Made by a program: the position numbers and the translations under genes. Under the pieces are notes generated by a model. The model did no database searches, had not been told where the DNA came from, and saw only the letters and a program-made list of their open reading frames with translations. 64,000 nucleotides of DNA, from the IMG/VR virus record IMGVR_UViG_3300015360_000041, positions 2,900 through 66,899 of that record. One strand, written 5' to 3'. Source of the DNA: a virus. Positions 9,501-25,427 of this stretch are shown here, one piece after another (the first letter of the stretch is position 1; the number at the start of each line of letters is the position of its first letter).

Positions 9501-10571
9501 TTACATTTTAAAATCTCCGTAATCAACATCTGACGAGTCCTGTTTGAACGCGCCCGTGGTGTATGTCACTATCTCAGTCTCTTGTGGTGCTTCCTGCATC
9601 GATTTGCTTTCGGTCCAATTGGTAATCCAACTTATTGGATTCTGTACCTTATCGAATATCGGTTCCAATTTTATGGTTTTCATCCGGCTATTAGTGAGCC
9701 ATTTCATGTACTGGATGAGGATGTCAGCATTCATTCCAATCATGGCGCCGTCTTTGAAAAGGTATTTCGCCCACTCAATCTCTTCGTCTGCCGCGTCCTG
9801 GTACATTTTTATCACAGTCTTTTCACATTCTGCTGCAATCTTTTTGAATCCCTCAGTCTCGTCTTCTGCCAAATATTTGAGTATCAACGACGAACACCCC
9901 ATGTGTAGGTTCTCGTCGCGGTTTATTAGCGATATGATTTTCGCATTGCCTTCCATCTTTTTGTTCTGTGCGAAACAGTATGAACACGCGAAAGACACGT
10001 AAAAACGTATGCCTTCGAGTATGTTTATGGAAACTAAAGTCAGATAAAGTTTCTTCTTGCGATTCTTCAATGTGTCATCAGGAATGGCCTCGATAAGCTC
10101 GTCATAATACTTGGTCACGGACGACGTGCGTTTGATAATTTCCGGGTCATCAAGTATGGTATCGAACACCTCAGACGGATTAGTGTAAATCTGTTTGATG
10201 ATGTATGTATACGAGTACGAGTGTAACGTCTCGAAGAACTCCCAAGTTTTGGCAAATGCCTCGATCTCCGGATTCGAACAGTCTTTCAGCAAATGTGAAA
10301 TTCCCCTGGACTGTACAGAATCTAGTAATATCTGGTACCCGAGGTTTTTTGTAAAAATGAAACGCTCGTGGTCAGACAACGACTGAAAGTCGGATTTGTC
10401 CCTGCTCAAATTAATTTCTTCCGGTCTCCAGAAGAAAGATATTTGTTGTTTGAACATGTTGAAAATCTTCTCGTATTTAGGCTGGTCATATCGTTGTAAC
10501 GACAATTCTGCACCAAAGAACATCGGTTCCTTTCTGTAATCTATTTGCTTTGTGTTTATGATGTTTTTCAT
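9501..10571 (-). CDS. nrdB: ribonucleotide reductase class Ia beta subunit
   Basis: FFWRPEEI, LLDSVQ, ETLHSYSY, LEGIRFYVSF, RDENLH, APQETE. Confidence 0.97.
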   Translation of the reverse strand: MKNIINTKQIDYRKEPMFFGAELSLQRYDQPKYEKIFNMFKQQISFFWRPEEINLSRDKSDFQSLSDHERFIFTKNLGYQILLDSVQSRGISHLLKDCSNPEIEAFAKTWEFFETLHSYSYTYIIKQIYTNPSEVFDTILDDPEIIKRTSSVTKYYDELIEAIPDDTLKNRKKKLYLTLVSINILEGIRFYVSFACSYCFAQNKKMEGNAKIISLINRDENLHMGCSSLILKYLAEDETEGFKKIAAECEKTVIKMYQDAADEEIEWAKYLFKDGAMIGMNADILIQYMKWLTNSRMKTIKLEPIFDKVQNPISWITNWTESKSMQEAPQETEIVTYTTGAFKQDSSDVDYGDFKM

Positions 10572-10587
10572 ATCTTATATTTTTTTT

Positions 10588-11091
10588 TTAAATTGAGCAT
10601 GCGCCAGAATCACAACCGGAGTCTTTACCCATCTCATCGATGTCATCGGATTTCTTGTCGTCAGTGTTTGCATAGTATAAGGTCTTTAGACCGTATTTGT
10701 ACGCGTATAACAAGTCTTTGATAACACCGCCCAGAGAGATACCGTCATTACTGTACTCGTAGTAGTGATTTGCAGACACCGACTGGTCGATCCATTTCTG
10801 GATTACCGCAACGATGTTAGTGTAACCCTTGTTGTCGCCCATGTCGTAAGCCAGCTGGTATTTGTTCTTCAATTTAGTTATCTCCGGGACAACCTGTTTG
10901 ACTAGACCCGACTTGGAGCGCTTTGTCGTCACCAATGCTCGTACAGGTTCCATACCGTTAGTCGCATTCTGTACTACTGCGGAATTATGTGATACACAAC
11001 CATTATCTAATATATAATTATGTTGATTTAATACTTCTATATCATAAGTATGTTCTTGTTCTTGTAATTTTGTGATTTTTGTAATTCTCAT
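10588..11091 (-). CDS. nrdA: NrdA C-terminal fragment fused to a split-intein C-half (IntC)
   Basis: 36-aa IntC ending YDIEV..HNY..NGCVSHN, then SAVVQNATNGMEP, DQSVSAN, LKTLYY and terminal CDSGAC. Confidence 0.93.
   Translation of the reverse strand: MRITKITKLQEQEHTYDIEVLNQHNYILDNGCVSHNSAVVQNATNGMEPVRALVTTKRSKSGLVKQVVPEITKLKNKYQLAYDMGDNKGYTNIVAVIQKWIDQSVSANHYYEYSNDGISLGGVIKDLLYAYKYGLKTLYYANTDDKKSDDIDEMGKDSGCDSGACSI
10984..11091 (-). mobile_element. split intein C-terminal half (36 aa)
   Basis: Blocks F/G, penultimate His, terminal Asn, Ser+1. Confidence 0.9.
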
Positions 11092-11106
11092 ATTTTATTT
11101 TTGTTT

Positions 11107-11232
11107 TTATTTTATGTGTTGTTGATTAAACATTTGTAATTTATATTCTAATTCTTCTATAGTATGACTGCATTTTATTTTTTTACTGCTATTTACAGAT
11201 AATGACATATATTCTAAATTTAGAATATGCCG
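11107..11232 (-). pseudogene. probable 3' remnant of an HNH-type endonuclease between the intein halves
   Basis: Minus-strand frame reads RHILNLEYMSLSVNSSKKIKCSHTIEELEYKL..., an NL......N..K...C..TIEEL HNH C-terminal pattern with no N-terminal part. Confidence 0.5.
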
Positions 11233-11234
11233 GC

Positions 11235-11582
11235 TTATTCAAAAATATTAATAATATCGTCAAATTCTTTCAGTTCATCAACTCGCGTCCATATTTCGAT
11301 ATTATCTCTATTAACTAAGAGCTTATGATTTGCTGTCATTTTATATGTTTTACCGTCAGTGAATTCTATTTCATATAATGATTTTAATCCATTATAATAA
11401 AACTTATTACATATATCAGAACTATCTTTAGTTTTAACATTGAATGGAGTCTCAAATTCATACCAGTTTGATATTCCGTTCTTTTCTATTTTTTCAACAT
11501 CTATATTTTGTTCTTTGAAAATTTCAGTATACGATTTAATATCGCCATTTTCTAATATTATTTTAGTATCTTTTGTAACGCA
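11235..11582 (-). mobile_element. split intein N-terminal half (115 aa)
   Basis: Cys1 block A CVTKDTKI, block B TANH; visibly AT-rich relative to the flanks. Confidence 0.9.
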
Positions 11583-13475
11583 AGATTCCGCAGGCATGAC
11601 GGCTGTCAATACCGAGTTGCGTAAACCCGCTCCCGTTTTGAGGTCGAGTTTCACTCTCAGCCCCTCCCAGTCGCACGAGTGTGTGCGTTTCACTAAGTCA
11701 TCTACATTCTTGTTATATCTGTCTATTGGCAAGACGCCTTTGCTGTACGTCGTCTTATCGTACCATTCACACGCGCCCAACTCTTCCGCTAATTTATTAG
11801 ATGCCACCAATAGAGAATACTGTATGTGCTCGAACAATTCGTCTACGGCAGTCAGAGACTCGGCGTCAGTGTATTTCAGGTCTTGTTTGGCCAACCAGTA
11901 TGCGAAATTTGTGATACCGACACCTATGCTTCTGCGTTTCAACATCTTCTTAGACGCGTTAACCGGGTAGTCCTGGTGGGTTATAACAAAATCTAATAAT
12001 CTCACAATGTATTCGGACGCCTTGTATAACTCTTCGTTGTTCTTTATGGTGCCCAAGTTGTGTGCTGCGAGAACACATAGGGCAATCTCGCCTTCCGAAA
12101 GGTGTTCAGTTTCCGGTTTGTCATCAAAATCGTATATCGATTTTAGTTCGCTGGTAACAAGACAAATTTCCACGCAAAGATTCGACATTTTCACGCACTC
12201 GATGAACGGAGAATTCGAATTCACATTATCGATATTCATCACATAAAGACGTCCCGTTCCGATGCGTTCCTGCGCGAAACTGTTCATCAGGTCGCGGGCT
12301 TTCACTGTCTTGCGTACAATCTTTTTGTTAGCCTCGTATTTCTCATACAGTTCGTCAAACTTCTCGTTGACGCCAAAGCTATCGTATAAACCCGGCACGT
12401 CGTGCGGACTGAATAGTGATATGTCTTCGTTATCGATGAATCTCTTGTAGAACATCTTAGAGAACTGGATGCCGTAATCCATATGTCGTACACGGTTGTC
12501 GTCAGTGCCCTTATTATTCTTCAACACCAATACGTCTTCAATCTCTTTATGCCACCACGGGAAATATACTGTTGCGGAACCCTTTCTGATACCGCCTTGG
12601 GAACATGAATGTACCGAGCTTTGCATCTGTTTCAAGAACGGGATTACCCCGGTGTGTACAATCTCTCCGCCGCGGATTTTAGAGCCTACTGCACGGATTT
12701 TACCGACATTGATGCCGATGCCCGCGCGCTTGCTCACATATTTAGTGATTGCCGCGTTTACGTATATGATGGAATCTAATGAGTCGCCAGTTTCAATTAG
12801 CGTACATGAGCTGTACTGCCTGTTCGGTGTCCTGATCCCGGCCATAATCGGCGTAGGCAGTGATATTTTCTGTAACGATATTAGGTCGTATAGTTCCTTG
12901 ATATGTTTGAAACGTGTGTCCTTGTCGTAATCCATGAATACTGTCATAGCTATCAACATGAATGCGTATTGCGGCGTCTCGTATATCTTACCGACAGAAC
13001 GGTCTTTGACCAGGTACTTGTCCATCAGCTGTTGAAGACCGGCGTAAGTGAAATCGTAATCTCGCTTGTGTTTGATGTACAGGTTGATGACAGATATTTC
13101 TTCGTTCGTGTACTTTTCCAATATGACCGGGTCGTATACCTCAGCCTTGACATTATTGGTTATGACGTTCCACAGGTGGGGCATCTCGGTCTTCACCTCG
13201 AATACCTCCTTACGCAACAGGTAATTTAAAAGATTTGCTGCAACATATTGGTAGTTTGGTGTTTTCTCGTTTGTCAGGTCGACTGCAGACTGTATCAATA
13301 CATTATGTATCGCGCTGGTCTTTATTCCTGAAAAGAATTGAATGTGTGAGTTCATTGCTACATCGCTTGCAGACACCCCAGAAAGACCTTCTGTCGCCCA
13401 CATTAAAACTTTGTTGATTTTCTCGGCATCGAAACTTAGCTTTTCCCCGTTTCTCTTGGTAACGTTTGAATCCAT
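11235..13475 (-). CDS. nrdA: NrdA N-terminal fragment (ATP cone + catalytic barrel) fused to a split-intein N-half
   Basis: VTKRNG ATP cone, ETPQ, SLPTP, QYSSC, SQGGIRKG, SNLCVEI; after MPAES it continues CVTKDT...TANHKLL and stops. Confidence 0.95.
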   Translation of the reverse strand: MDSNVTKRNGEKLSFDAEKINKVLMWATEGLSGVSASDVAMNSHIQFFSGIKTSAIHNVLIQSAVDLTNEKTPNYQYVAANLLNYLLRKEVFEVKTEMPHLWNVITNNVKAEVYDPVILEKYTNEEISVINLYIKHKRDYDFTYAGLQQLMDKYLVKDRSVGKIYETPQYAFMLIAMTVFMDYDKDTRFKHIKELYDLISLQKISLPTPIMAGIRTPNRQYSSCTLIETGDSLDSIIYVNAAITKYVSKRAGIGINVGKIRAVGSKIRGGEIVHTGVIPFLKQMQSSVHSCSQGGIRKGSATVYFPWWHKEIEDVLVLKNNKGTDDNRVRHMDYGIQFSKMFYKRFIDNEDISLFSPHDVPGLYDSFGVNEKFDELYEKYEANKKIVRKTVKARDLMNSFAQERIGTGRLYVMNIDNVNSNSPFIECVKMSNLCVEICLVTSELKSIYDFDDKPETEHLSEGEIALCVLAAHNLGTIKNNEELYKASEYIVRLLDFVITHQDYPVNASKKMLKRRSIGVGITNFAYWLAKQDLKYTDAESLTAVDELFEHIQYSLLVASNKLAEELGACEWYDKTTYSKGVLPIDRYNKNVDDLVKRTHSCDWEGLRVKLDLKTGAGLRNSVLTAVMPAESCVTKDTKIILENGDIKSYTEIFKEQNIDVEKIEKNGISNWYEFETPFNVKTKDSSDICNKFYYNGLKSLYEIEFTDGKTYKMTANHKLLVNRDNIEIWTRVDELKEFDDIINIFE

Positions 13476-13597: not shown

Positions 13598-14803
13598 TCA
13601 AATTATATTTTTAACATACACGAATACTTTTACGCCGGCGTTAGGGACGCATATTACATTTCCGTTTGCGATCTCGGATTTTACCGCGGAGTGTTTCATG
13701 GGCTGCCTGTGTTTTATTTCATCTGTATGTACCCAGTAATTCATAACCCCGCCCTTCGAGTAGTTTACGAACGTGAACCCAATATCTTCCAGGCTGCCGC
13801 CGATATTGTGGTCGTAGTCGGAATAGAACTTGATTTCGTTCACCTGTATAGATTTCTTGCCAACTTCCAGGAACTCATGGTTGTTTATGAAATGTCTGAA
13901 CAGTCTAGAGCTTCCGCCGACGACAGAGTGATATTTCAATGTACCGACGCGTATGATTTCTATCACCCCGGGTTTCTTGGCGAAAAAATTGTAGCCGAAT
14001 GTGTATAACATGACTAGAGTGCCGGCTTTCAAACTATTTCTGTCTTTTTTGAGAACCATCCCGAGATTTAGAGACGCACCTCTGCTGCCATAGAAACAGT
14101 TCTTCTTTTCAAATTCCCTGGCGACCGCGCCATCTACGACCACTATCTCACAGTCCCTCGCGTATATCCTGTCGATAGTCTTGTGCGCGGCGTGTAAGAT
14201 ATACGATTTCAGTATTTCTTTTTTCGCCGGGTCATTCCACTCGAAGTCTTTTACCCACATTTTGAACGAGTTATTCTGCTCTGACTGTAACGACAAATTG
14301 AAAAAATACGACTTGTCTATGTCGTTCAACGAGTGTTTCGAACTGTCGATATAGCATATCTCATATCTCATGCCAGATCTAGTATGGAAATAATATTGGT
14401 TGTTTTCGACGGTATAATCAATTTTGCTGATATTCAGAAACGCTGTCATCTCGTTATTATATAACGTGTGTTTCGCCTGTAACGAATACACCGTGTACCC
14501 ACAATCGTATATCTTGAAAATGTTGTCATTTAATATTTTTACGGCATCGTTATTATATTTTAGATCGATAACACTGTTTTCGTGTAAAATTGTGTCCTTG
14601 CTGTTAGAATCAAAATATTTATAGTTCGGCTGTTCATATTTGACAAAATTTAATTTCCCGGTATCCAAGAATATGTTATTGTTGTCGTGTGTGTAATAAT
14701 ACGCGTGTAGATTTAATTCATTTACGAATATATCGAATATATCCGTGGGGTCATATGCGGCGTCGAAATTGAAGTATGTTATCGTATTGTCGTCTACTGA
14801 CAT
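13598..14803 (-). CDS. C-terminal part of a Hef-like homing endonuclease-associated protein
   Basis: KIYDCG, IYARDCEI, GGSSRLF, YSD..GF motifs typical of these phage proteins; its frame stays open upstream into the neighbouring ORF. Confidence 0.55.
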   Translation of the reverse strand: MSVDDNTITYFNFDAAYDPTDIFDIFVNELNLHAYYYTHDNNNIFLDTGKLNFVKYEQPNYKYFDSNSKDTILHENSVIDLKYNNDAVKILNDNIFKIYDCGYTVYSLQAKHTLYNNEMTAFLNISKIDYTVENNQYYFHTRSGMRYEICYIDSSKHSLNDIDKSYFFNLSLQSEQNNSFKMWVKDFEWNDPAKKEILKSYILHAAHKTIDRIYARDCEIVVVDGAVAREFEKKNCFYGSRGASLNLGMVLKKDRNSLKAGTLVMLYTFGYNFFAKKPGVIEIIRVGTLKYHSVVGGSSRLFRHFINNHEFLEVGKKSIQVNEIKFYSDYDHNIGGSLEDIGFTFVNYSKGGVMNYWVHTDEIKHRQPMKHSAVKSEIANGNVICVPNAGVKVFVYVKNII

Positions 14804-14829: not shown

Positions 14830-15999
14830 CTAATTCGTAGTTGTATCGACTAATACGGCCGTAGAAATATCGGTATATTTGATTTCGTCTTGTGTAATTT
14901 CACTGACGGTGTAGCTTGTAAATTTATCATGTGATTTATTGATATGATTACGTAATAGCGTTTTTATATTGTTGCTGTTATGTTTCCACTCGTTTTCAAA
15001 AACGTGGAATAATTTTATGTTTTGTTTACTTGCGGCTGTGGATTTATTGTAATGATAGTTCGTGTCCGTTTTATATTTCTCTGAGTGCCAGAATACGCCG
15101 TTGTACTCTACTGCCAGATTTACGTCTTTGCAGTATATGTCTAAGTGCTTGCCGTTCAGTATTGTTTTATTTGTCTGCTCGGTATTCGTAAACTGTTTTA
15201 TGTAGTCAAATAACTCGAGTTCCGCGCAAGATATGTTACTGTTGATGGGATTACACTCGGTACACGGGCACACGTCGTATAACTTAACTCGCTGGTACAG
15301 TAATTTGTACGGTATTTCATAATATCTGTCACATTTTGTGCACAATATCTTTAACAAGTTTTCATTCAATATTTCAAAATTATGTATGTCGTAATCTCTC
15401 GGCAGTTTATACATGTAAAAATTGACCCAGGTTTTTTGGATTTTGTTTTTAAAATATACTGATTTATTGAAACTTGCCGCCCCGTATCTTTTCATGTTTG
15501 TCGCAACCGACTTAGTTTTTATGTCTAAATGCGTCAGTGGCGATTTGCTGTTATACTTGAGTATGCAAGTGTTCTGTTTTTTCTGCTGGATGTCATGTAC
15601 CAATAACACATTTTCCACGCCGTATCTGTCCATACACGTCTGCCTGTATTTCTCTTTGCCCTCGTCACTCTGCATATAACTATCGTGACCGAATAACATG
15701 TTATTGGTTATTTTAGCTTTACCGCGCGAGCACGCTTTGCAGGTATAAAACCCGTGTCTGTTAACATTCTGCACGTATTTGTAATACATTAACGATTTTT
15801 CTGCGTCACATTTAGTGCAAATCGCAGTAATGGCTGCATGCGAATTCGTAGACAAATCATGTATCTTGACGTCTGCAGTGTAAATCACACCCTGCGCCGT
15901 CTTATCGCCATTTTCTAATTCGTATCCCTTGCTGAGAAAATAGCTTTTGTTTGTATTATTGATTTTTATCTGTATCTTTTCTTCTTTAATCATATGCAC
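14830..15999 (-). CDS. putative homing endonuclease: Zn fingers, KYG-type repeats, PD-(D/E)XK/Vsr-like domain
   Basis: CxxC pairs, TCMDRYGVEN/TNMKRYG repeats, HLDIY...AVEYNGVFWHS, FHVFENEW. Confidence 0.7.
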   Translation of the reverse strand: MHMIKEEKIQIKINNTNKSYFLSKGYELENGDKTAQGVIYTADVKIHDLSTNSHAAITAICTKCDAEKSLMYYKYVQNVNRHGFYTCKACSRGKAKITNNMLFGHDSYMQSDEGKEKYRQTCMDRYGVENVLLVHDIQQKKQNTCILKYNSKSPLTHLDIKTKSVATNMKRYGAASFNKSVYFKNKIQKTWVNFYMYKLPRDYDIHNFEILNENLLKILCTKCDRYYEIPYKLLYQRVKLYDVCPCTECNPINSNISCAELELFDYIKQFTNTEQTNKTILNGKHLDIYCKDVNLAVEYNGVFWHSEKYKTDTNYHYNKSTAASKQNIKLFHVFENEWKHNSNNIKTLLRNHINKSHDKFTSYTVSEITQDEIKYTDISTAVLVDTTTN

Positions 16000-16083: not shown

Positions 16084-17412
16084 ATGGAACGCATGATTAT
16101 CGATAGGAAAAAAAAGCAATTATCTACAGATGAAATATCATATTTAGATACGCTTAGTGAATACGATGTTATTGCGTTAATGAAAGAATGTAACGACAAA
16201 TATAATTACCATAACGCCGTTCAGACAGGATTAAAATTAATTTTAAACTCTGTTTATGGTGCATTCGGTAACGAGTTTTTCGTGTGTTCCACGACTGATA
16301 TTGCAGGGGCCATCACGGCGATGGGTCGTGACCTTATCAAATACATGGATACTATTAATGAGACGTATTGGTACGAGTACTGGCATGAAGACGATGAGCT
16401 GCACGAGCATTTAAAAATAAGCGATGTCGAAAAAATACCAGATAACTGGATTCACAGAGAGTCGAAGACACTGCACGAAGGCGAAGTCACCCAGTTAGAT
16501 ATGGAAGACGGCACGTACCAGAGAGAAGTGTCTGTGAGTAACTATGTTGATACTGATTCTTTATTTTGTTCATTCGAACCGGCAATGAATAGCGCTAAAT
16601 GGAAAGGCGATGAACAAGATTTCATCACAAAAATAGCTGAATTCAGACTGGAGCCGTTGTTCAAATCGAAGCTCAAGGGTTATGCGAAGAAATACCGTGT
16701 CGAAAATATACAGGAGTTTGAATTAGAGAATATTAATGAGTCGGTAATATTTTTGACGAAAAAGAAATACATCAAGCACACGATACGGGAAGATGGCACG
16801 CAATACCCGAGACTGCAGAATATTGTGCCGAAAGGCGTGCAGCTTATTCAGAAGGGGACACCTAAATTCGCCAGAGAGAAAGTCATGCAGATTATCAATT
16901 ACTTGTTTGATAATTCAACATCGTATAATATCAAAGACCTGTTGAAATTTGTCAGGGACCTGAAGAAGGAATTCGAATTGACAGATATTAACGATATTGT
17001 ACAGTCTACGAATATAAACAATTACTGGTCTAGCAAGTTGATTGTGGACGGCCAACTCACAGATGGTCCTGGAGTAGTACATGACAAAGACAAGCTCATT
17101 TACGGCAAGGGCACGTATTACACAATAAAGGCAGCTGGTCTATACAATAACTTGCTGTACAAACACGCTGAGCTGATTAACACATACGAGGTCATAAAAC
17201 CCGGTACAAAAGTAAAGATATACCCGTGTCTCGACAGTGAGAATGATAAATTTTGTTACATATTGGGCAAATATCCGAAGGAATTCGCGCCGGCCGTCGA
17301 TTATGACGAATTATTTCAGAAAACGATAGCAGCCCAGGTTAATACATATATTAGTGCGTTAGGTCTGCCGGAACTGAATAAGCGTCTAAAGGTCGTAATA
17401 TCACTGTTTTAA
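16084..17412 (+). CDS. family B DNA polymerase, C-terminal subunit only (split gene)
   Basis: Motif B KLILNSVYG, motif C YVDTDS, KKKY, KG; no exonuclease domain and no motif A. Confidence 0.85.
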   Translation: MERMIIDRKKKQLSTDEISYLDTLSEYDVIALMKECNDKYNYHNAVQTGLKLILNSVYGAFGNEFFVCSTTDIAGAITAMGRDLIKYMDTINETYWYEYWHEDDELHEHLKISDVEKIPDNWIHRESKTLHEGEVTQLDMEDGTYQREVSVSNYVDTDSLFCSFEPAMNSAKWKGDEQDFITKIAEFRLEPLFKSKLKGYAKKYRVENIQEFELENINESVIFLTKKKYIKHTIREDGTQYPRLQNIVPKGVQLIQKGTPKFAREKVMQIINYLFDNSTSYNIKDLLKFVRDLKKEFELTDINDIVQSTNINNYWSSKLIVDGQLTDGPGVVHDKDKLIYGKGTYYTIKAAGLYNNLLYKHAELINTYEVIKPGTKVKIYPCLDSENDKFCYILGKYPKEFAPAVDYDELFQKTIAAQVNTYISALGLPELNKRLKVVISLF

Positions 17413-17430
17413 AAAACAACTATAAATAAT

Positions 17431-24269: not shown

Positions 24270-24314
24270 TCTATTTCATTACTAAGGGCCAATCCGGCCT
24301 TAACAACCTTTTGA
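24261..24314 (+). pseudogene. orphan duplicate of the first 16 codons of the 25441 gene
   Basis: MNGSISLLRANPALTTF* versus MNGSISLLRANPSLTTN at 25441. Confidence 0.9.
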
Positions 24315-25355
24315 TTTATGTTTTTGATACCAACCATTTTGTAAATATTCATTAAGTTCAACAGATTTTATCATTTTTCTTTCACTGGTATTTTTGTCAG
24401 TTACCCATAATTTTCCAAATGATGGATTTTTATTACCTTTTCGTAATTTTGCTTTTTCACTCATTTTTTGTTTTGTAATATCACTATGTTTTTTACCCTT
24501 ACCAACAAATAATAATTCTCCAGATAAATAACGACTATCGTCTTTAAAGACATTAAAAATATTGTTATTATTATCTTTTACTGTAACCATATTTTTTGAT
24601 GACCCAAAAAATTCACCGGATAAATATCTAATGTCATCAGAGTTTACTGTATATTTATTTCCGTGTATATCTTGAACGTGTACTATATTAGTATTTGGAT
24701 GATATAATTCGCCGGATAAATAACGTGGGTCGTTTAATTTTACTTTATAAAAATTTCCATTTTTATCAATTAATGTTATTTTACCCTTTGTATTTCCGGA
24801 TATTTCCCCGGATAAATAACGTGGGTCATTTTTATGAACTTGCATAGTTTTACCAGTTTCATCGATAGCTGTAAATAAATCAAGTGTTATGTGTTTAAGT
24901 TCGCCTGCTAAATATTGTTTATCGGTAACATCAACTCTGGAAGTATTGCCAAATTTATCTTTAACTGTTACAAAACCAGTATTTATATGTAACAATTCGC
25001 CAGATAAATAACGTGGGTCATTTTTATGAACTTGCATAGTTTTACCAGTTGTATCTTTTACACAAACTGTATCTTGTACATTAAATTGACCACCGCCCAA
25101 AATTATATTATATGTATCATTTCGTGCAATAAAATATTTATTTACTAATTCTTTCTCTTTCAAAAGCATATCATGTTTATTATCAAATATATACAATAAT
25201 AATTTATCAAAATTATGTAAACCATATTCCTTAATTGCCTTTTTAATATTTGTCCCAGAACCCATGTATGTGTCATTTCGTGTTTTTGTCGCATGTACAC
25301 CAATATAAATCATGTTATTTATTTTATTTGTTATTTGATATACTACATATTTCAT
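24300..25355 (-). mobile_element. free-standing GIY-YIG homing endonuclease with tandem DPRYLSGE-type repeats and a NUMOD3-like motif
   Basis: YVVYQITN...YIGVH...YMGSG, HSDITKQKMSE; AT-rich island; probable ATG at 25355. Confidence 0.9.
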
Positions 25356-25427
25356 ATTTCGTGCCAATTACTTTTGTATTTTTATATATTATATTTGAAC
25401 AGTTATAAAATCAACTTATATTTTTTT

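Follow-up and report, generated by a model that had tools for sequence, protein, structure and literature searches.

How can a phage obtain a working large subunit of ribonucleotide reductase (RNR) when the gene for it, nrdA, is present as two separate genes? This question is raised by a locus in a stretch of 64,000 nucleotides (nt) of viral DNA, in the following called the window, which covers positions 2,900 to 66,899 of the IMG/VR virus record IMGVR_UViG_3300015360_000041. Here, a first gene (nrdA-N) ends in the N-terminal half of an intein (IntN) and a second gene (nrdA-C) begins with the C-terminal half (IntC), the two being parted by a short spacer. We consider it very probable that this is a phage class Ia nrdA which was cut into two genes by a mobile split-intein cassette, and likely that the cassette was later stripped of its endonuclease gene. 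The arrangement as such is of a known and common kind, of which this is a new allele, at a site other than that of the published NrdA split inteins and after probable loss of its endonuclease gene.

The locus carries the features of a class Ia NrdA, which are, by Pfam and alignment, the ATP-cone, the all-alpha domain, the barrel, a pair of adjacent tyrosines (YY), a C-terminal cysteine pair and an adjoining nrdB (Table 1). The barrel, Ribonuc_red_lgC, is divided between the two genes, with positions 1-392 of the Pfam model on nrdA-N and positions 392-522 on nrdA-C. At the junction nrdA-N reads ...VMPAES/CVTKDT and nrdA-C reads ...GCVSHN/SAVVQNATNG, the slash marking the border between extein and intein. 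The initial annotation of this DNA had described an nrdA fractured by a naturally split intein, with a first gene ending MPAES/CVTKDT...TANH...IFE before its stop codon, a second gene starting MRITKI...VSHN/SAVVQNATNG, intein halves of 115 and 36 amino acids (aa) and a gap of 143 nt. Gene ends, sizes and gap all stand, and it can be added that nrdA-N, nrdA-C and nrdB lie on the minus strand, which had been left unstated. The fracture by a split intein is likewise supported, namely by the Pfam matches of the halves, by conserved catalytic residues and by contiguous relatives, the mini-inteins of Campylobacter phage CP220 and of the metagenomic protein P0138.

Table 1. Features of the fractured nrdA locus and the adjoining nrdB, in window coordinates (ORF, open reading frame; GC, guanine plus cytosine)
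Feature	Position	Strand	Remarks
nrdA-N gene	11235..13475	(-)	746 aa; ends in IntN
nrdA N-extein, 631 aa	11583..13475	(-)	ATP-cone, all-alpha domain, barrel to Pfam position 392; NLCVEI intact
IntN, 115 aa	11238..11582	(-)	CVTKDT...MTANH...IINIFE; stop codon 11235-11237
Spacer, 143 nt	11092..11234	(-)	21% GC; stops in all three frames
Probable HNH-like endonuclease 3' relic (phrog_5104 family)	11146..11229	(-)	inside open frame 11110..11238
33-aa ORF	11107..11208	(-)	post-ATG part of open frame in spacer
nrdA-C gene	10588..11091	(-)	167 aa; begins with IntC; ATG at 11091
IntC, 36 aa	10984..11091	(-)	MRITKITKLQEQEHTYDIEVLNQHNYILDNGCVSHN; block F TYDIEV; block G His-Asn end
nrdA C-extein, 131 aa plus stop	10588..10983	(-)	Ser+1 (SAVVQNATNG); YY pair; C-terminal CDSGAC
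nrdB (small subunit)	9501..10571	(-)	adjoins nrdA-C downstream; PF00268, E 3.8e-55

The earlier claim that removal of the intein restores a class Ia NrdA can be followed in two relatives whose nrdA is uninterrupted at this site. In the related locus L008, the exteins of which are 69-76% identical to those of the window, one frame reads through as ...FPAESSSVVQ..., and in L132 (78-79% identical), the closest nrdA found, the sequence ...IMPAESSAVVQNATNGMEP... equals the predicted spliced product letter for letter. The uninterrupted MPAESSAVVQNATNGMEP is identical in L132, and intein removal thus restores a conserved host sequence. Alignment of L008 with the Escherichia coli R1 chain (expectation value (E) 6e-58) places the intein between the residues that correspond to T624 and S625 of E. 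coli NrdA, and because of this position the +1 nucleophile is the S625 equivalent. The loop around T624/S625 presumably contacts the substrate phosphates. The thiyl-radical motif NLCVEI, about 190 residues upstream of the intein, is uninterrupted in nrdA-N, and its cysteine, Cys434, is invariant in the alignment of N pieces. The radical-transfer YY pair (LYYAN) and the C-terminal CxxxxC are found on nrdA-C, as had been noted for the second gene; their counterparts in L008 align with the adjacent tyrosines and the CESGAC of E. coli R1, which we take to be Y730/Y731 and C754/C759, and the C piece of the window aligns with its relatives over the YY and C-terminal Cys columns.

The intein itself is complete in its parts. 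Positions 1-93 of the model Intein_splicing (PF14890) match IntN with 38.0 bits at a cut-off of 35.8, and this profile match is accompanied by the residues of a class 1 intein, namely Cys1, TxxH, a C-terminal His-Asn and Ser+1. All 20 related N pieces share C632 (Cys1), T714 and H717, and T714-A-N-H717 (TANH) is what we take to be intein block B. Among 19 C pieces T15, D17, G31 and H35 are invariant, N36 is nearly so, and the +1 residue is Ser or Thr. Both halves align end to end with contiguous CP220 and P0138 (about 151 aa compared to 115 plus 36), with no residues missing, and alignment with contiguous relatives puts the break at the position where endonucleases are usually inserted. The net charge of IntN is -7, that of the first 12 IntC residues +2.

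From these features a course of events can be proposed by which the two genes would give one enzyme. The first gene would be translated into the N-extein fused to IntN and the second, from its own start, into IntC fused to the C-extein, and the two intein halves would then associate into one HINT domain and perform class-1 protein trans-splicing. Cys1 would undergo an N-S acyl shift, Ser+1 would attack the resulting thioester and Asn36 of IntC would cyclise. The predicted product is an NrdA of 762 residues in which a native peptide bond joins the equivalents of T624 and S625. As to its history, the cassette would have come by homing from a low-GC donor and would once have held a free-standing HNH-like endonuclease gene of the phrog_5104 family between the halves; after deletion of this gene about 130 nt of its 3' end would remain as the spacer before the IntC gene. 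In the model of Dassa 2009 the locus may be placed at step III, at which the endonuclease is lost and the split intein fixed.

The composition of the DNA sets the cassette apart from its surroundings. IntC, spacer and IntN have GC contents of 21.3%, 21.0% and 24.9%, compared to 44.9% and 45.7% for the two exteins and 41.3% for the window as a whole. The 599 nt of the cassette (10984..11582) thus form a compositional island, and because of its GC content of 21-25% against about 45% in the exteins the cassette appears to be foreign and to have reached the locus from a genome of low GC, through homing or recombination.

Relatives of the intein are found in a series of states from contiguous to split. 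A search with IntN against 1.84 billion protein representatives gave 270 matches, and among the best 150 of these 121 are split forms, ending no more than 12 residues from the projected end of IntN, and 29 continue. All 25 top matches that were scanned are RNR large subunits, one of them of class II; the barrel stretch stops at about Pfam position 390 in most of the 25, and earlier or within the intein in a few. The C piece matches dozens of proteins of 155-200 aa which read MKIKSIKK..HTYDIEV..NGCVSHN/S.. followed by the NrdA C-terminus. At least 19 distinct loci carry this intein, L120 being the same contig as L093. The contiguous state is represented by at least three loci, at least seven are split with an ORF of 272-412 aa between the halves, at least two have a 150-aa ORF in a gap of 632 nt, and at least seven are split with gaps of 10-240 nt, including L039, a record with many broken frames.

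In the contiguous state are the Campylobacter phages CP220, CPt10 and PC14 (Firehammervirus, Fletchervirus), which carry a homologous intein at the same site, IntN being 34-44% identical (tblastn). Their intein halves align with those of the window without a gap at the split point; however, they are encoded as one polypeptide by one gene, whereas the window has two genes and a spacer. The parts of Dwivedi 2013 (PMC3653736) used here mention the contiguous intein of CP220. The Klebsiella jumbo phages phiKp_21 and KP13-7 (Alcyoneusvirus) and Campylobacter phage CP21 have an intein of the same family with the same split point in nrdA and keep a gene of 272-323 aa between the halves, which belongs to the family of the apparent relic in the window. 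It encodes 323 aa in the two Klebsiella phages, and in CP21, where the gene is fragmented, its largest piece is an ORF of 272 aa. The junction of phiKp_21, MPGE/C...HN/TSSQ, lies one residue earlier than that of the window. In GenBank the pieces of phiKp_21, KP13-7 and CP21 are labelled nrdA or hypothetical protein, not intein.

Two further observations concern the variety of such interruptions. The proteins P0132, P0136, P0139 and P0148 are RNR middle pieces with the IntC of another split intein at their start and an IntN of the family studied here at their end, and those enzymes are therefore encoded in three genes. In L132 (1632-2530) the intein site of the window is empty and the gene is fractured upstream instead, where a 259-aa GIY-YIG gene precedes the IntC of another split intein; close relatives therefore differ in the occupied site and in the intein cassette within nrdA.

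What, then, is the spacer? An intervening gene of 272-412 codons is found between the halves in at least seven related loci (phiKp_21, KP13-7, CP21, L041, L093, L123 and L126). The encoded proteins gave no match to a Pfam family; they share phrog_5104, and one weakly resembles endonuclease VII. These endonucleases have 55 relatives, which end in HLDHKFSISRGF...NLEFIPWEEN..KQGKCSIT.EEL. For the mechanism of deletion the pair L041/L042 is decisive, in that the 155-nt spacer of L042 corresponds to the last approximately 150 nt of the 328-aa gene of L041 (flanks about 77% identical; hidden Markov model (HMM) E 1e-28). In the spacer of the window the long open frame reads ISRHILNLEYMSLSVNSSKKIKCSHTIEELEYKL..., and 13 of 24 residues are identical to the L041 endonuclease, in whose frame of 336 residues the match covers 311-334 (BLASTP, E 1e-5). 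An HMM built from 30 endonucleases and run over 2840 six-frame pieces of the window placed the spacer at the top (E 0.01 at 12.4 bits; positions 301-328 of the 331 in the model), with the second-best piece at E 0.82. Because the spacer tops this search, because it sits at the place of the endonuclease gene and because L042 is a parallel case, it is likely to be the 3' stub of a deleted HNH-like endonuclease gene of the phrog_5104 family. It could instead be ordinary intergenic DNA, such as a promoter or leader, next to a genuine split intein, the likeness to an endonuclease tail being due to chance. Several results lean that way: the HMM statistics are moderate, with an E of just 0.01 in an AT-rich region of low complexity; a PHROGs scan of the spacer translation gave nothing relevant; the phiKp_21 endonuclease (P0002) gave no match to the spacer; and the phrog_5104-type family finds no match in the short spacers of L125 and L128, so that relics are not uniform across the intein family. 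Moreover, the spacer holds TATAAATT, which differs by one mismatch from TATAAATA, a sequence enriched in the window with 17 copies compared to 4.7 expected. Nevertheless, we regard a chance likeness as unlikely, given that the best of the 2840 pieces lies where at least seven related loci have the endonuclease gene, that the alignment reaches the very end of the model and that L042 holds an independent remnant of the same kind.

The interpretation as a split-intein gene has to be weighed against three further explanations, and some results speak against it directly. The match of PF14890 positions 122-155 to IntC reaches 24.6 bits, which by itself does not attain the cut-off of the family; that the halves associate and splice is deduced from sequence; and of the 26 polymorphisms listed for nrdB, nrdA-C and nrdA-N from contigs of other samples, only two are inside the intein (one synonymous, one not), so that the signal of selection comes mainly from outside the intein. 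The contig support for the spacer is in two parts. In X1, a possible source sample, Logan contigs covering 10300-11184 and 11157-12000 show no difference to the window and each crosses one gene boundary; they overlap by 28 nt inside the spacer, and no single contig bridges it. A population variant at this break, for example one keeping the endonuclease gene, could thus exist. A check across 11091-11235, which the initial annotation had named, was made on Logan assemblies; it bears out both gene boundaries, with the spacer not spanned in one piece. An assembly or sequencing artefact, the true phage having a contiguous mini-intein or an intact nrdA, would draw on this missing bridge in the likely source run and on the fact that some public relatives are error-ridden, such as L039, which is annotated as many tiny coding sequences. 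However, a frameshift cannot close the gap, because the 143 extra nt carry stops in all frames (8, 4 and 2) and no intein residues are missing. A second assembler agrees at both boundaries, a 292-nt contig of another sample, X2 (10863-11154), holds the IntC start and 63 nt of the spacer with two differences, and the split point is common to at least 16 other loci and to 121 of the 150 best protein matches. Stretches that lack contig cover in X2, X3 and X5 carry no weight in this comparison. We give an artefact hardly any credence.

The same holds for the view that nrdA is decaying, broken by mobile elements and heading for loss. The nrdA of CPt10 has been described as a pseudogene (Dwivedi et al. 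2013, PMC3653736, in the part used here), the intervening gene of CP21 is in fragments, and two more endonuclease genes lie directly upstream of nrdA-N; but both ORFs of the window are intact with complete conserved motifs and nrdB next on the same strand, the 26 polymorphisms comprise 22 synonymous and 4 non-synonymous ones, and the nearest alleles (74-76% identical) keep the two-gene layout. Loss of the gene would therefore be a most surprising reading of it. Very improbable, too, is that the intein halves dock without splicing and that NrdA is a non-covalent two-chain subunit, in the manner of the NrdA-a and NrdA-b tails of Aeromonas phage Aeh1. This phage provides a precedent for a functional nrdA in pieces without splicing, as far as the parts of the two sources used here describe it (Crona et al. 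2011, PMC3045599; PMC2677866). A docking clasp, however, would not need the class-1 catalytic residues, which are all present and invariant or nearly so in relatives, and docking alone would leave about 150 foreign residues between the T624 and S625 equivalents, among the most conserved stretches of the barrel. The nrdA split-intein locus is thus genuine and, as judged from its sequence, probably functional.

How does the locus relate to systems described before? With the fractured genes of Dassa 2009 (PMC2677866) it shares, to the extent covered by the sections of that source drawn on here, a housekeeping gene present as two adjacent genes on the same strand, an IntN at the end of the first and an IntC at the start of the second, and a split at the usual endonuclease insertion point. 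The free-standing endonuclease gene which these fractured genes have between the halves is lacking in the window; it is likewise gone in gp41-7, described there as the sole example without an endonuclease gene and as step III of the model, so that its lack does not speak against membership in the group (PMC2677866). The published split inteins NrdA-1 to NrdA-7 lie directly N-terminal of the thiyl-radical cysteine according to the same sections, whereas the intein of the window is at T624/S625, Pfam position 392; it is set apart from them by the described site (PMC2677866). The endonucleases reported in these sections are GIY-YIG or Vsr-like, in contrast to the probable relic of the window and the genes of its relatives, which are HNH-like, without a Pfam model and of phrog_5104 (PMC2677866). 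No description of a split intein at the T624/S625 site of NrdA was found in the open literature, InBase, subscription journals and supplements being outside this scope.

A separate case is Aeromonas phage Aeh1, whose genes in pieces, nrdA-a, mobE and nrdA-b, were reportedly described by Friedrich in 2007. Its nrdA, too, became two adjacent genes after invasion by a homing endonuclease; however, it has no intein, and its chains stay separate and assemble via tails, whereas the window has a complete split intein and its endonuclease gene is gone (PMC3045599, in the part used here). The Npu and Ssp DnaE inteins have in common with the window the canonical split into a long IntN and a 36-aa IntC, and the IntC of the window aligns end to end with the 36-aa chain of Npu DnaE IntC (4lx3_B), although an E of 0.04 makes this match marginal. 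They differ in the host protein and in the +1 residue, which is Ser in the window and Cys in DnaE.

The initial annotation had left open whether the allele is new. By comparison of the sequences the allele is new, and the intein family is common and mostly split. The nearest IntN sequences are those of P0331 (65% identical) and, from the search of representatives, P0125 (62%), followed by two at 60% and 58%; for the nearest C pieces overall identity is 76% and 74%, with about 75% and 69% in the IntC part. Among 5.8 billion clustered proteins identity does not exceed 65% for IntN and about 75% for IntC, and the best matches to the intein in cultured phages reach 44% (the Campylobacter PC14 group) and 35% (Klebsiella). 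Among solved chains E does not fall below 0.012 for IntN or below 0.04 for IntC. In viral_contigs and metagenome_contigs a degenerate DNA pattern made for the closest IntC subgroup was found 0 times; as P0016 (JGI label) fits the pattern, we take this to be a limit of the scan rather than absence.

A wider reading of these data is possible, which we put forward tentatively and hold to be rather less probable than its opposite. The locus might be the end state, free of the endonuclease, in a large clade of RNR inteins which are naturally split and sit at the T624/S625 site, a clade comprising enzymes of class Ia and at least one of class II, in which about four fifths of the sampled members are split and every stage of endonuclease gain and loss is present in the window and its relatives; the stub might have been kept as it supplies the start region of the IntC gene, and the pair might be fast and orthogonal like gp41-1 or NrdJ-1. 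If this were true, the compact allele of 115 plus 36 residues with Cys1 and Ser+1 would be a fast orthogonal trans-splicing pair of that kind. In a panel of 34 inteins gp41-1, gp41-8, NrdJ-1 as well as IMPDH-1 counted among five exceptionally fast ones (Pinto et al. 2020, PMC7090010, as given in the section used here). Because split inteins from fractured phage genes are thus among the fastest (PMC7090010), new and distant alleles are candidates for orthogonal protein ligation, and that of the window uses Ser+1. The locus and its relatives also illustrate cleanly, as a natural series, the model by which a gene with an intein is fractured by an endonuclease gene that is lost afterwards, with a recognisable endonuclease stub left in the window and in L042. 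For annotation it matters that such pieces are usually labelled 'nrdA' and 'hypothetical protein', so that an RNR which is functional can be taken for a pseudogene.

Regarding expression, a Shine-Dalgarno-like motif precedes only 3 of the 59 ORFs in the window, and the leaders are A-rich. The leader of the IntC gene is A-rich and without a Shine-Dalgarno motif as well and closely resembles that of nrdA-N. As the two leaders are alike and such motifs are rare in the window, independent initiation of translation at the IntC gene is plausible from the sequence, and the motif being found at only 3 of 59 ORF starts suggests a host that does not use Shine-Dalgarno pairing.

Some minor features of the spacer and of comparable spacers may be added. 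Rfam gave nothing relevant on the locus, which argues against an intron, and RNA structure of the spacer gave a null result with a z-score of 0.20. A 16-bp palindrome, ATTCTAAATTTAGAAT, at 11211-11226 is unique in the window and not commoner than expected by chance. None of 100 shuffles reaches the 17 copies of TATAAATA counted in the window, and several of them are placed just upstream of an ORF start, as at 17421, 23744 and 30404; we take TATAAATA to be the consensus of a T4-type late promoter. The spacers of L125 (3755-4000; 240 nt) and L128 (3765-4000; 179 nt) translate to tails like ...IHIIWSSDFDKLEKIKE..., which, judged by eye, look like stubs of another nuclease family.

The window is taken from a record of 66.9 kb for which CheckV estimates a completeness of 16%; this low estimate for a record of such length points to a very large phage. 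Neither a second gene for an RNR large subunit nor a further intein match was found in the 66.9-kb record, and in a megablast search 50,697 phage records gave no match to the locus at the DNA level. Upstream, nrdA-N is adjoined by two homing-endonuclease-like genes standing back to back, 13598-14803 (-) with 401 aa and 14830-15999 (-) with 389 aa. Both match phrog_559 and phrog_3339, and the gene at 14830-15999 also matches DUF7487 and, weakly, the N-terminal part of phrog_5104. Next to these genes an ORF of 442 aa at 16084-17412 (+) matches the family B DNA polymerase domain (453 positions) only from 136 to 348; neither an exonuclease half (PF03104) nor a second polymerase piece was found in the 66.9-kb record. 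This ORF, which lies beside endonuclease genes and shows no intein signal, may be part of a polymerase gene in pieces. A third endonuclease-like gene at 24300-25367 (-), which is GIY-YIG SegE-like with NUMOD3, has a GC content of 27% compared to 41% in the window and is thus a compositional island as well.

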